64,000 nt of DNA from Nannocystis sp. SCPEA4 (lineage in GTDB: Bacteria > Myxococcota_A > Polyangia > Nannocystales > Nannocystaceae). The translations under genes were made by a program, and so were the position numbers. Each line of letters starts with the position of its first letter. The first letter of the stretch is position 1. The notes under the pieces are model-generated. The model searched no databases, was not told the origin of the DNA, and worked only from the letters and a program-made list of their open reading frames with translations. The DNA lies in contig NZ_JAPNJX010000021.1 in the NCBI RefSeq assembly GCF_026626685.1, forward strand, positions 41,329-105,328, written 5' to 3'. Of this stretch, positions 53,842 to 57,621 are shown piece after piece.

Positions 53842-54936
53842 TCAGGCCGAGGGCAACGGCTCGCTGTGCTCGCCGAGCCAGCCCGCGACCTTCGGCCAGA
53901 TGACCTTGGGGCCCTTGCTCGAGGTCGACAGGCCGATGTGCCCGACCGGGAAGCGCAGCAGCGTCTTGTCGGTGCTGGCGACCGCGCCGAGCAGCGCCTC
54001 GGACGAGGCCGGCGGGGCGATGGTGTCGTTGTCGGCGACCAGCACGAGCAGCGGGCAACCGATCGCGCCGAGCTCGACGCGGCGGCGGCCGACGACCATT
54101 CGGCCCTCGAAGAAGTTGTTCTCCTGGTAGCAGTCCTTGATGTACTGCCGGTACACCTCGCCGGGGAACGGCACGTTGTCGGCCGCCCAGTGCTCCATCG
54201 CCAGGAAGTTGGTGACGAACTCGCGGTCTTCGAGGCGGCGGAACACCTCGAACCACTTCGAGATCCGCTGCACCGGCGCCATCATCGAGAAGCCGGCCTC
54301 CATGAGGTCGATGGGCACGTTGCCGTAGGCGTCGACCATGGCGTCGACGTCGAAGAACTCGGGGTCGGTCCAGGTGGTGAAGATGCCGCCGTGCTTGAAG
54401 TCGACCGGCGTGGCCTGGGCGACGAAGTTGCGCACGCCCTGCGGGTACAGGGCCGCGGCCGCGAGCGCCATGGTGCCGCCCATGCAGTAGCCGTACATCG
54501 TCAGGTCGTCGGCGCCGGAGATCTTGCAGACCCACCGCTTGGCCGCCTCGACGAACCCGCCGAGCAGGTCGTCCCACGTCAGATCCTGCTCGACCGGCCC
54601 CGGCGTGCCCCAGTCGATCGCGTACACGTCGAAGCCCTGGTTCGTCATGAACTCGATCAGGCTGCGACCCGGCAGGAAGTCGAGGATGTAGTAGCGGTTG
54701 ATCAGCGAGTAGACGAACAGGATCGGCGTGCGGAAGCGGCGGACCGCCGGCTCGAAGCGGATCAGCTTCATGCCGCCGCGCGCGTACACCACCCGCTTCG
54801 GCGTCGCGTTGACCGGCGGATCGCCGACGCCGGCGGCCCGCTTGACCAGCGGCGCCAGGTAGCGCGTCGGTCTGACCGCGCGGTCGCGGAGCGCCCGCTG
54901 CCACGCGCTCGAGATCGCGGCTGTCCCCTGGGCCAT
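53842..54936 (-). CDS. phaC: Poly(R)-hydroxyalkanoate synthase PhaC (class III/IV type)
   Basis: Lipase box GYCMGG. ~360 aa like class III/IV PhaC. An alternative GTG start at 54998 overlaps the upstream ORF stop (GTGA). Confidence 0.8.
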   Translation of the reverse strand: MAQGTAAISSAWQRALRDRAVRPTRYLAPLVKRAAGVGDPPVNATPKRVVYARGGMKLIRFEPAVRRFRTPILFVYSLINRYYILDFLPGRSLIEFMTNQGFDVYAIDWGTPGPVEQDLTWDDLLGGFVEAAKRWVCKISGADDLTMYGYCMGGTMALAAAALYPQGVRNFVAQATPVDFKHGGIFTTWTDPEFFDVDAMVDAYGNVPIDLMEAGFSMMAPVQRISKWFEVFRRLEDREFVTNFLAMEHWAADNVPFPGEVYRQYIKDCYQENNFFEGRMVVGRRRVELGAIGCPLLVLVADNDTIAPPASSEALLGAVASTDKTLLRFPVGHIGLSTSSKGPKVIWPKVAGWLGEHSEPLPSA

Positions 54937-54995
54937 GTCGGCCAGGCGCTGCGCCGCGCCCTTGACCCGCGCGAACGGCCCGCCGTCGCTCGCGC

Positions 54996-55394
54996 TCACG
55001 CGGCCCCCCGGAGCGAGCGCGCCAGCTCGGTCTGCACCTTCTCGAGCAGCTCGAGCGCGAGCTCCAGCTGCGTGGTGGTGATCTCGAGCCGGTCCTCGGC
55101 GCGGCGCAGCTGCGCGCGCACCTCGTCGAGGTCGCCGAGGGTGGGCACGCGCCAGAAGTGCAGGACCTCCTCGGTGAGGTCGACCAGGTCGCGGTGGAGG
55201 TGGAACATCCGCTTGAGCCCGCGGCCGGCGAACCGCAGGTAGCGCGGGCTGGTGGCCAGACGCGTCATGACGCCGGTCGAGGCGCCCTCGAAGCGCATCC
55301 ACAGCTTGCCGGGCCCGCTCCTGGGGTCGGTGAGGTAGCCGACGAGCCGGAGGATCCGCGCGGTGACGTTTTGCGGTGCTGTCTCTTTGGACAT
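54996..55394 (-). CDS. Short coiled-coil PHA synthase partner (PhaE/PhaR-subunit-like)
   Basis: 132 aa, C-terminal coiled coil LDEVRAQLRRAEDRLEITTTQLELALELLEKVQTEL. Sits immediately upstream of phaC and is translationally coupled to it. Confidence 0.45.
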   Translation of the reverse strand: MSKETAPQNVTARILRLVGYLTDPRSGPGKLWMRFEGASTGVMTRLATSPRYLRFAGRGLKRMFHLHRDLVDLTEEVLHFWRVPTLGDLDEVRAQLRRAEDRLEITTTQLELALELLEKVQTELARSLRGAA

Positions 55395-55406
55395 GTCGAA
55401 AAAGTC

Positions 55407-56930
55407 CTAGGCCGAGGTGGAGAGCATGGCCCGCAGCTCGCGCTTCAGGATCTTGCCGGCGGGCGACAGCGGGAGGGCGTCGAGGAAGACGACCGACTTG
55501 GGGACCTTGTAGCGGGCGAGGTGGTCGCGGCAGCGCTGCAGCAGCTCGGCCTCGCTGGCGCTCGCGCCGGGCCGCAGGGCGACCACGGCCTTGCCGACCT
55601 CGCCCCACTGCGGGTCCGGTACGCTGATCACGGCGCACTGGGCCACCGCCGGGTGCTCGTAGAGGATCTTCTCGATCTCCACCGGGTAGACGTTCTCGCC
55701 GCCGGAGATGAACATGTCCTTCTTGCGGTCGACGATGAAGTAAAAGCCGTCGGCGTCGCGGCGCGCGAGGTCGCCGGTGTGGAAGAACCCGTGCTCGTCG
55801 AAGTGCGGGGTGGTGACGCCGAAGTAGCCCGAGCAGGCGGCCGGGCCCTTGAGCACCAGCTCGCCGACCTCGCCGTCGGCGACCGGGACGTTGTCGTCGT
55901 CGACGATCCGCGCGTCGACGAAGTAGTTGGGCCGACCGATGCTGCCGGCCTTGCTCTCGCCGAGCTCGGGCGCCAGCGAGAACGCCCCCGGCCCGAACTC
56001 GGTCATGCCGAAGCCCTGCTTGAACGCGACCTTGTGCACCGCACAAAACGCGCGGATGAGCGGCACCGGCAGCGGCGCGCCGCCGCTGGTCAGGAAGCGG
56101 ACGCTGGCGAACGAGGTCGCGGCGAAGCGCGGCGAGTCGAGCATCATCTGGTACTGCGTCGGCACGCAGAACAGCGCGGTCACCCGGTACTGCTCGATCA
56201 GCGCCAGCATGTCGTCGGCGGTCCACTTCTTCATGATCACGACGGTGCCGCCGAGCGTGAGCAGCGGGACCGTGTAGACGAACAGGCCGCCGGTGTGGAA
56301 CATCGGCGTGTGGGTGATCGTGACGTCGCCGCGCTGGATCTCGTGGACCATCGTGTTGAGGGTGTTCCACGCGATCATGCGGTACGAGATCTGGGCGGCC
56401 TTGGGCGCGCCGGTGGTGCCGCCGGTGAACAGCAGGCAGGCGATGTCCTCGGCCTCGACGGCGGGGTTGTCGACCGGCTCGGCGGGGCTGGCGAGGACGC
56501 TGGCCCACGCCGCGCTGCCGTCGACGGCCTCGCCCTCGAGGTGGACGAACTGGGCGATCGCGGTGTGCGGGCGCAGCTCGGCGGTGACGGTGGCGAACTC
56601 GGGCCCGAACACCAGCACCTTCGGCGCGACCGGGACGATCACGTCGACGAGCTCGCGCCAGTGGCTGCGCCAGTTGAGCGGGACGAAGATCGCGCCGAGC
56701 TTGGCGCAGGCGAAGAACACGTCGAGGACCTCGACGCCGCTGTGGGCCAGCAGCGCCACGCGGTCGCCCCGGACCACGCCGCGGCCGCGCAGCCACCCGG
56801 CCACGGCGTCGGCGCGGCGGTTCAGCGCCGCGTAGGTGAAGCGCCCGGCGTCGCCCTTGGCGACGTCGACGACGGCGAGGTTGTCGGGCCAGTACTGCGC
56901 TCCGCGTCGCATCCAGTCGCCGATGAACAT
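55407..56930 (-). CDS. Acyl-CoA synthetase (AMP-forming ligase)
   Basis: AMP-binding motifs LLFTGGTTGAPKAA, YRTGDL-like GDLARRDADGFYFIVDRKKD, GKILKRELR. Confidence 0.8.
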   Translation of the reverse strand: MFIGDWMRRGAQYWPDNLAVVDVAKGDAGRFTYAALNRRADAVAGWLRGRGVVRGDRVALLAHSGVEVLDVFFACAKLGAIFVPLNWRSHWRELVDVIVPVAPKVLVFGPEFATVTAELRPHTAIAQFVHLEGEAVDGSAAWASVLASPAEPVDNPAVEAEDIACLLFTGGTTGAPKAAQISYRMIAWNTLNTMVHEIQRGDVTITHTPMFHTGGLFVYTVPLLTLGGTVVIMKKWTADDMLALIEQYRVTALFCVPTQYQMMLDSPRFAATSFASVRFLTSGGAPLPVPLIRAFCAVHKVAFKQGFGMTEFGPGAFSLAPELGESKAGSIGRPNYFVDARIVDDDNVPVADGEVGELVLKGPAACSGYFGVTTPHFDEHGFFHTGDLARRDADGFYFIVDRKKDMFISGGENVYPVEIEKILYEHPAVAQCAVISVPDPQWGEVGKAVVALRPGASASEAELLQRCRDHLARYKVPKSVVFLDALPLSPAGKILKRELRAMLSTSA

Positions 56931-57066
56931 CGTGGATCCTCCGTCGACGAGGCTACCCGAAGGCCGGGCCGTGCTGCACGTGCGAAAAGGCGGCCTCGGG
57001 CCTGGTGGGCGCGTGTACGGCTGTCCGGGGCAGAATCGGGCCGCGAATTGTGCAGCGCACAAAAGC

Positions 57067-57621
57067 TCACGAGGCGGGCCGCCTGCCCTTGCGGGCGGGC
57101 CGGCTGTCCTCGACGGTGCGACGCAGCTCGGCGAGCTCGCGGCGCAGCGCGGCGAGCTCGTCGGTCATGTCGGGGCTGTCCGCGGGCGGCTCGTCGGGGA
57201 ACGGCGGGGGCGCAGGCTCACCGGCCGCGGGTGGGTTGCCGCCGAACCAGCGCTTGAGGATCCCCGGCATCGCCAGGTCGGCGAGCGGATTCCACGGGAC
57301 CACCGCCCGCGCGTTGCCCTTGAGCTGCAGGTACACCTCGAGGGCCCAGGCGACGTAGCGGCCGAAGAATTCGGCGAGCGCGTCGTCCCGCATGCGCACC
57401 AGCTGCTTGAGCAGGGACACCGGCAACAGCCGCGCGGCCCCGCGGCTCTCGAGGATGATCTGCGCGAGCGTGACCTGGGTGAGGTCCTGCCCGCTCTTGG
57501 CGTCCACGACCTTGAGGTCCTCGCCCATGCGGACGCGCTCTGCGATCTCCTCGAGGGTGACGTAGCGGCTGCCCTCGGTGTCGTAGAGCCGACGATTGCC
57601 GTACTTCTTGACCTGCAACAT
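57067..57621 (-). CDS. phaR: PHA synthesis repressor PhaR
   Basis: N-terminal PHB_acc_N signature LQVKKYGNRRLYDTEGSRYVTLEEI. Confidence 0.75.
   Translation of the reverse strand: MLQVKKYGNRRLYDTEGSRYVTLEEIAERVRMGEDLKVVDAKSGQDLTQVTLAQIILESRGAARLLPVSLLKQLVRMRDDALAEFFGRYVAWALEVYLQLKGNARAVVPWNPLADLAMPGILKRWFGGNPPAAGEPAPPPFPDEPPADSPDMTDELAALRRELAELRRTVEDSRPARKGRRPAS

Follow-up and report, generated by a model that had tools for sequence, protein, structure and literature searches.

A short PhaE/PhaR-type partner and a linked acyl-CoA ligase suggest a two-component-type polyhydroxyalkanoate synthase locus in Nannocystis

Does a compact gene cluster of the predatory myxobacterium Nannocystis sp. 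SCPEA4 encode a two-component polyhydroxyalkanoate (PHA) synthase, and is the very small open reading frame (ORF) just ahead of its synthase gene a new kind of synthase partner? The cluster lies in a 64-kb stretch of DNA (the window, whose coordinates are used below; local G+C ~70%), in which the original prediction, made from the sequence alone, had read a gene order of PhaR, acyl-CoA synthetase, a 132-aa ORF and PhaC. We found this order as predicted, with all four genes on the minus strand:

57621–57067, minus strand: PhaR-like regulator, 184 aa, with a PF07879 PHB_acc_N domain
56930–55407, minus strand: AMP-forming acyl-CoA ligase, 507 aa, ATG start, with PF00501 and PF13193 domains
55394–54996, minus strand: small partner ORF, 132 aa, without a Pfam or NCBIfam match, PhaE/PhaR-type at the profile level
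54999–53842, minus strand: phaC, 385 aa, GTG start, TIGR01836 as best family

Our analysis suggests that this is a PHA synthesis locus, probably of the polyhydroxybutyrate (PHB) type. We consider it fairly likely that PhaC is a PHA synthase assisted by a minimal PhaE/PhaR-type subunit, that the co-transcribed ligase feeds it, and that the unit is under the control of a PhaR-type repressor acting at a conserved operator. As judged by profile comparison, the 132-aa protein is a diverged, short member of the PhaE/PhaR helper-subunit superfamily and not a new kind of partner.

Two observations mark the small ORF as a real gene: its G+C content at third codon positions is 0.955, against 0.47 and 0.72 in the two other frames, a pattern like that of its neighbours (0.93–0.99), and it has 38 length-conserved homologues of 52–100% identity, every one of them unnamed. 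A GGAGGA Shine-Dalgarno sequence precedes the ligase ATG at 56930. Only 12 nt separate the ligase stop codon from the ATG of the small ORF, which is then joined to phaC by a 4-nt overlap (GTGA); this spacing supports co-transcription of the three genes and is consistent with the proposal that the ligase belongs to the same transcription unit. The overlap also points to the translational coupling of partner and phaC that had been proposed, as do the tight junctions in relatives (a 4-nt or 1-nt overlap, or a gap of 2–3 nt). PhaC is longer than the ~360 aa first given for it: the overlapping GTG yields 385 aa, with an internal ATG as an alternative start that would yield 364 aa. The GTG is supported by the junctions in relatives and by the PhaC of N. 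pusilla, which is 96% identical and likewise annotated as 385 aa. A scan of 53500–58000 for sigma-70 promoters and intrinsic terminators found nothing.

PhaC carries the hallmarks expected of a short PHA synthase. The lipase-like box of the original prediction, GYCMGG, is present (G170-Y-C172-M-G-G175), and this box, D325 and H354 are invariant in comparison with myxobacterial, haloarchaeal, rhizobial and Priestia PhaCs. Among families, PhaC fits the class III model TIGR01836 best, the class I model giving 144 bits. With the catalytic triad intact and an adjacent partner that bears the core described below (profile A3 scores it at E 2.4e-41), the idea of a two-component-type PHA synthase module is borne out at the sequence level. 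A neighbour-joining tree of 89 short PhaCs places the Myxococcota in a single clade, apart from haloarchaeal class III and Bacillota class IV, with a mean identity of 37–38% to either; the clade is one among many lineage clades (Planctomycetota, Melainabacteria and more). This tree answers the proposed phylogenetic check in part, since it carries no support values and leaves out the Allochromatium, Synechocystis and Priestia megaterium reference enzymes. PhaC also aligns to positions 39–358 of the 994-position model NF005898 'acyl-CoA synthetase' (80.9 bits). As a side observation, this match hints at a PhaC-like domain fused to an acyl-CoA synthetase in another lineage, echoing the gene linkage seen here.

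To place the 132-aa protein, a profile of 16 of its close homologues (A1) was searched against 1.84 billion cluster representatives, which recovered 68 proteins of 49–276 aa. The PhaE model PF09712 (PHA_synth_III_E) was matched by 34 of the 62 relatives scanned, with a best E of 5.6e-12 and two proteins exceeding Pfam's cutoff; in every relative inspected the match covered the last 70–85 of the 311 model positions (about 228–311). Weaker matches to the phasin model PF05597 were seen for 17 of the 62 (best E 3.5e-8), and the Myxococcus xanthus orthologue of the partner matched PhaE models only. Two distant members of the family that we looked up, P0079 and P0088, sit directly upstream of a PhaC of 357–362 aa.

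Comparison with known partners leads to the same place. Our reference loci comprised H. mediterranei phaEC (PhaE 182 aa), a Rhizobium phaEC (PhaE 198 aa) and 80 genome loci with PhaC relatives. When a hidden Markov model built only from Nannocystis-type sequences was run against the 5,737 ORFs of these loci, it gave 57 matches, all of them PhaC-locus partners also identified by A3, with haloarchaeal PhaE reaching E 2.8e-7 at best and Bacillota partners ~1e-3; the Bacillota partners are class IV PhaR by NCBIfam (TIGR02132, 80–149 bits). Profile-profile comparison with hhalign, which used independent alignments in place of the narrow A1 profile against single sequences, aligned the Myxococcota partner with haloarchaeal PhaE (91.5% probability, E 8.6e-7, 81 columns) and with Bacillota PhaR (80.3%, E 1.4e-5, 86 columns), and the last two with each other (95.2%, E 2.9e-8, 78 columns). 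The three kinds of partner have in common a core of ~80–100 residues around a near-invariant turn, R-x-P-[TS]-x-x-[DE], whose proline is P84 in the window protein. A further N-terminal segment of ~25 residues in the Nannocystis partner is matched only by Myxococcota sequences, and on these alignments the partner is essentially the shared core plus this N-terminus. The profile check proposed for the small ORF therefore comes out as homology to the PhaE C-terminal core and to class IV PhaR, and not to phasins only. The description 'coiled-coil partner' is borne out only in part: an AlphaFold2 model based on the 16-sequence alignment contains five helices, but at a low mean predicted local distance difference test (pLDDT) score of 55 and a predicted template modelling score of 0.25.

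Other assignments for the small protein were set aside. RegB_T4, DUF4423 and CpeA appeared only as noise in direct Pfam and NCBIfam scans, and the solved-structure matches of the family profile (Vps5-like, E 0.0035; a dynein regulatory protein) are of a generic helical or coiled-coil kind and were dismissed as compositional. Separately, the C-terminal end of PF09712 picks up class IV PhaR proteins of Bacillota as well (TIGR02132; loci L038, L049, L053 and others), with scores that in some cases exceed its cutoff (34.3 and 32.1 bits); a preprint states no domain assignment for Bacillus PhaR. In locus L029 (5539–7119), from a metagenome-assembled genome (MAG) of Planctomycetota, a partner-like region (weak, E 0.044) and PhaC fall within one 526-aa ORF, which may be a natural fusion of the two or may only reflect maximal ORF calling.

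The original prediction had argued that 132 aa lies outside the known partner sizes and that a possibly new subclass follows from it. In our survey of 88 PhaC loci, a homologous partner recognised by profile A3 lies near phaC in 78, upstream in all but two, with lengths of 102–230 aa that, as maximal ORF lengths, are upper bounds:

Myxococcota: about 128–155 aa
Haloarchaea: 172–194 aa
Bacillota: 117–222 aa
Dehalococcoidia and delta-proteobacterial MAGs: 130–131 aa
one delta-proteobacterial MAG: 102 aa

Partners of 117–131 aa occur in Brevibacillus, Dehalococcoidia and delta-proteobacterial MAGs, and the PhaR of Schinkia azotoformans, at 137 aa, exceeds the equivalog cutoff of TIGR02132. Haloarchaeal PhaE, such as the 182-aa protein above, has been described as ~20 kDa, against 40 kDa in bacteria, and in Haloarcula both phaE and phaC are required for PHA accumulation (PMC7137286). 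The survey rules out 132 aa as uniquely small, and the size argument for a new subclass fails because PhaC-adjacent partners of 117–190 aa are common and haloarchaeal PhaE is ~20 kDa. What survives of the proposal is the distinct, unannotated Myxococcota clade, for which the word 'subtype' is defensible on phylogeny, but not on compactness.

The regulator has a clear PhaR-type N-terminal domain (PF07879 PHB_acc_N, 91.3 bits, cutoff 25), with PF05233 (23.5 bits, cutoff 27) and the PhaR model TIGR01848 (97.3 bits, cutoff 109.45) scoring below their thresholds. Homologues stand in the same position in loci L091, L092 and L093 (185–191 aa) and L004 (218 aa). Two palindromes bear on its possible function:

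57048–57062, in the phaR-ligase gap: candidate PhaR operator, palindrome TTGTGCAGCGCACAA
56032–56046, within the ligase coding sequence: second palindrome copy TTGTGCACCGCACAA

The first spans 15 bp within the 136 nt that separate phaR from the ligase gene; its minus-strand reading, TGCGCTGCACAA (57048–57059), equals the footprinted 12-mer of the B. diazoefficiens phaP4 promoter. This is a DNase-footprinted PhaR site in Bradyrhizobium, with the consensus TGCRNYGCASMA (PMC6201568), and the window palindrome likewise matches a palindromic motif described for Sinorhizobium (PMC12542648). Only two sites in the 64 kb fit the consensus, the two listed, where 0.83 were expected; 1 of 100 shuffles equalled this count. 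The 13-bp palindrome alone, with one mismatch allowed, is not significant (3 matches against 2.3 expected), so the significance rests on the full consensus and on positional conservation. Indeed, the palindrome occurs once per locus in L001/L014, L002, L009, L012, L013, L025, L091, L092 and L093, each time shortly before the module's first gene, and in L091–L093 it lies 6–16 nt past the phaR stop codon. We found no consensus site upstream of phaR in the window. Since the candidate operator sits before the ligase-partner-phaC unit, phaR is better seen as a neighbouring regulator: the proposal of a PhaR at the operon head holds in that a PhaR-type regulator is adjacent, but phaR is probably a separate transcription unit beside the other three genes.

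The second copy matches the consensus exactly on both strands, ~900 nt from the ligase start, and has flanking bases in common with the first (TTTTGTGCG-N-TGCACAA). No counterpart turned up at the corresponding place in related loci, each with a single match, and its significance is uncertain. Between operator and ligase, some loci carry an ORF of 95–104 aa without a known family (L001 6102–6401, L002 848–1147, L091 3700–3987, L092 3667–3981); it occupies the expected phasin position, and neither the window nor Nannocystis sp. ILAH1 (L093) has it.

The ligase is an AMP-forming enzyme with strong domain matches (PF00501, 273 bits; PF13193, 80.6 bits). Its best NCBIfam model is the long-chain-fatty-acid-CoA ligase NF004837, at 436.6 bits against a cutoff of 476, and among solved structures it is closest to 8weu/8wev (fatty-acyl/feruloyl-CoA synthetase, 351 bits) and to FadD13. 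The partner-phaC pair recurs across the breadth of Myxococcota (Nannocystis, Polyangium, Myxococcus, Archangium, Hyalangium, Vitiosangium). Ligase orthologues of 64–78% identity lie upstream of the partner in nine Nannocystaceae/Polyangia loci (L001, L004, L011–L013, L015, L091–L093), immediately so wherever the ORF bounds are clean, and a phaR gene usually precedes them. A ligase relative of 41–43% identity is found immediately downstream of phaC in three divergent Myxococcota-like loci, L009, L025 and L026. In the first of these (L009 3264–8234), the order is operator, sodium:solute symporter, 190-aa partner, PhaC and ligase, an arrangement that suggests import, activation and polymerisation of a carboxylate. 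Because the adjacency holds in two different arrangements, a functional link between ligase and synthase can be argued. Pseudomonas putida offers an established case of PHA monomers being recycled by an acyl-CoA synthetase, encoded there away from the pha cluster (PMC3918157). As a side observation, in the Cystobacterineae, here Hyalangium (L003 8129–9016) and a Myxococcaceae strain (L005 8119–9015), the partner-phaC pair has no ligase before it but an alpha/beta hydrolase of 295–298 aa after it; the one scanned, from L005, weakly matches an intracellular PHA depolymerase model (33.6 bits).

A working model of the locus would run as follows. The ligase would turn free (hydroxy)alkanoic acids, recycled from depolymerisation or imported from outside, directly into CoA thioesters that serve PhaC as substrate. 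PhaC, through Cys172, Asp325 and His354, would act as the polymerase. Its non-catalytic helper subunit would be the 132-aa protein, whose coding sequence comes just before phaC; by analogy with PhaE and PhaR it may bind PhaC and be needed for full activity or for granule initiation. The PhaR-like protein would bind the palindrome that lies past the phaR stop codon and ahead of the ligase gene, so tying expression of ligase, partner and phaC to whether polymer is present. The steps that we infer are the activity of PhaC as a polymerase, its dependence on the partner, the substrate of the ligase, and PhaR binding with its direction of regulation. Enhygromyxa and Plesiocystis are two marine genera of the same family, the Nannocystaceae. 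PHB has been found in both by mass spectrometry, and a conserved PHB synthase noted (PMC6226438), while Nannocystis was enriched among PHA-positive sorted cells from the maize rhizosphere (bioRxiv 10.1101/2025.03.24.644850).

Several observations weigh against this model. The class III model is the best family for PhaC, yet its score of 330.5 bits falls below the cutoff of 365.3, and of the published class III motif RMExWIxDxxD (PMC7137286) only a part is present: AMEHWAADNVP retains M, E, W and the first D, with R, I and the last D changed (the haloarchaeal version is RMEEWLGDGID, that of Rhizobium RMEKWLADRPD). In this region, the 'ME-W' part is class III-like and the 'D-x-V-P-F-P-G' ending class IV-like. 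The 132-aa protein itself matches nothing in Pfam or NCBIfam, and hence no curated PhaE, PhaR or phasin model, and the narrow A1 profile against single PhaE sequences gave probabilities of 11% and 1.6% (E 0.0027 and 0.032). The best models of the ligase are generic fatty-acyl ligases, all below cutoff, so that its sequence gives no substrate; the Cystobacterineae lack ligase, phaR and operator; and tblastn of the window with three queries (MaoC and two PhaB-like short-chain dehydrogenase/reductase proteins) detected nothing like phaB or phaJ. Nor did three further tblastn queries match anything in the window: haloarchaeal PhaP, the 99-aa ORF of L001 and the hydrolase that follows phaC in Cystobacterineae. 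Finally, the phasin family PF05597 has the same short motif as the partner relatives. Because of this motif, and of the weak matches of 17 of the 62 relatives, we allow for a granule-associated role other than that of a subunit: the 132-aa protein would be a phasin-like surface protein that only coats or organises granules, with PhaC acting alone or with another partner. Relatives also weakly match TIGR01837, and a small, helical protein with a low-confidence fold is what a phasin might look like. We nevertheless think this distinctly unlikely, as PhaE matches are twice as frequent and stronger, the M. xanthus orthologue shows no phasin match, the gene holds the phaE position, directly upstream of and overlapping phaC, and homologous partners lie near phaC in 78 of the 88 surveyed loci, upstream in all but two; the 95–104 aa ORF that follows the PhaR operator in related loci would fit the phasin slot better.

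Doubts of another sort concern the enzymes. The match to NF005898, the tight linkage of ligase and PhaC, the name 'alpha/beta fold hydrolase' that NCBI gives to the homologues, and the lack of any report of PHA in Myxococcus in the literature searched would all suit a PhaC-like acyltransferase or hydrolase that works with the ligase on other lipids and makes no PHA. Against this stand a cysteine nucleophile, set in a GxCxGG box and joined by conserved Asp and His just as PHA synthases have it, and a class III score four times that of the fusion model NF005898; phaC also has a partner of PhaE/PhaR type, a PhaR-type regulator and a candidate operator for it at its side. Together with the PHB of related marine myxobacteria (PMC6226438), these points make such an enzyme improbable. 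More improbable still is that the ligase is an unrelated fatty-acid-activating neighbour that does not feed the synthase. Its resemblance to generic FadD-type enzymes and the ligase-free partner-phaC pair of the Cystobacterineae speak for this, but the gene stands 12 nt from the partner gene and downstream of the PhaR operator, and its adjacency is kept in the nine Nannocystaceae/Polyangia loci and reappears on the other side of phaC in the three divergent ones.

A ligase-fed PHA synthase with a minimal partner can be set beside the known systems. Haloarchaeal PhaEC (Haloarcula, Haloferax) likewise combines a short PhaC, with GxCxGG box and Cys-Asp-His triad, and a small helical partner directly upstream, co-transcribed there and predicted to be so in the window; the cores align over window residues 42–122 and H. 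mediterranei PhaE 105–184. Unlike the Nannocystis enzyme, haloarchaeal PhaC has a long C-terminal extension, belongs to a separate clade at the identity given above and carries the motif as RMExWLxDxxD, where Nannocystis has AMEHWAADNVP. Haloarchaeal PhaE is longer by ~60 residues at the N-terminus, where the myxobacterial partner carries a segment of its own, ~25 residues long, and the haloarchaeal cluster, maoC-phaR(AbrB type)-phaP-phaE-phaC, is without a ligase (PMC7137286). Bacillota class IV PhaRC also pairs a short PhaC with a small partner (117–222 aa) whose core aligns, and its PhaC has the D-x-[IV]-P-F-P-G motif ending in common with that of Nannocystis. It differs in clade, again at 37–38% identity, and in the surroundings of the histidine (GHTSIT or GHVSVT, against GHIGLS in Nannocystis); moreover, Bacillota PhaR has a C-terminal tail of 30–100 residues that the window partner lacks, and another gene often stands between the PhaR gene and phaC. 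In the classical Bacillota arrangement, this gene is phaB. The window partner does not match the Bacillota PhaR model TIGR02132. Against canonical class III PhaE (PF09712/TIGR01834, about 311–324 positions), relatives of the window partner match the last 70–85 positions in constant register, the first ~230 model positions having no counterpart in the window partner, and the window protein itself falls below detection.

The class assignment follows from these comparisons. Of the class III features, PhaC has the size of ~40 kDa, the GxCxGG box and the Cys-Asp-His triad; it lacks a TIGR01836 score above cutoff and the full RMExWIxDxxD motif, and its partner has no PhaE model match at E <= 1. Class IV would call for a TIGR02132 match of the partner and a grouping of PhaC with Bacillota, and neither was found. 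As the general features of two-component synthases are present and the curated cutoffs of both classes are missed, we file the locus as a lineage-specific variant and not as a member of class III or IV. The phasin cutoff of PF05597 is not reached either, the window protein giving no match and its relatives sub-threshold ones at most. For the regulator, the relevant comparison is with PhaR/AniA repressors and their TGCRNYGCASMA operators (Bradyrhizobium, Sinorhizobium), which share the PHB_acc_N domain with the window protein and whose operator has its putative cognate in the promoter region here; the C-terminal half differs, and the score stays below the TIGR01848 equivalog cutoff. The site precedes ligase-partner-phaC in the window and the 95–104 aa ORF in relatives, not a known phasin gene. 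The ligase recalls P. putida FadD1/FadD2 and ACS1, AMP-forming ligases proposed to re-activate hydroxy acids for the polymerase (PMC3918157); these work for a class II synthase from genes apart from the pha cluster, whereas the Nannocystis ligase gene is the first of the synthase unit.

Current annotation recognises neither protein, the partner being called a 'hypothetical protein' and PhaC an 'alpha/beta fold hydrolase', and genome surveys based on PhaE/PhaR models would therefore miss the PHA capacity of Myxococcota. The helper subunits of classes III and IV appear to have one short core in common, and small partners seem to be the rule in many lineages, which undercuts class definitions based on size. 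A natural ligase-synthase operon with a recognisable PhaR operator is also a candidate for compact polyester production from hydroxy acids that are fed to it. The account is drawn from sequence throughout; it leaves the prevailing view of the PHA synthase mechanism unchanged and describes no new one. A bolder version, which we hold to be unlikely, would see the locus as a PhaR-controlled 'salvage' unit of a predatory myxobacterium, in which free (R)-3-hydroxy acids pass through the ligase to PhaC and its minimal partner, bypassing thiolase and reductase, and in which the ~100-residue core is a minimal universal PhaC-activating module that unites classes III and IV. The acids, imported or released by a depolymerase, might then come from prey PHB, from lipid A or from the cell's own granules.

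Two genes convergent with the module may belong to it, their membership being tentative:

52327–53838, plus strand: lipoprotein-like protein with a GWSKG box, 503 aa, convergent to phaC, tentative member
51222–52283, plus strand: alpha/beta hydrolase, candidate intracellular PHA depolymerase, 353 aa, tentative member

The 353-aa hydrolase is a candidate PhaZ. Its top NCBIfam model is the intracellular short-chain-length PHA depolymerase NF050089 (102 bits, E 2.6e-29, N-terminal half only, cutoff 300) and its top solved relative is the poly(3-hydroxybutyrate) depolymerase 8ynv (60.6 bits). The 503-aa protein has a lipoprotein-like N-terminus, a Thr/Asp/Pro-rich linker and a lipase-type GWSKG box; family scans gave no match, and a weak lipase match surrounds the box (6nkc, E 0.0015). 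A homologue, 49% identical, is convergent to phaC in L092. Nannocystis sp. ILAH1 has genes like both in size and position (350 aa and Abhydrolase_1 for the hydrolase), matched on these properties and not by sequence comparison. In L092, a Polyangia-type MAG, phaC is followed 3 kb downstream by an extracellular PHB depolymerase with a MYXO-CTERM tag (9938–11227; TIGR01840, 141 bits, above cutoff). Farther out in the window, 49702–50859 (minus strand) encodes a 385-aa protein with a strong phytochelatin synthase domain (PF05023, 277.6 bits), and 57740–59464 (plus strand), divergent from phaR, encodes a 574-aa leucine-rich-repeat protein (LRR_4, 131.7 bits) with a Thr/Pro/Asp-rich N-terminal region.

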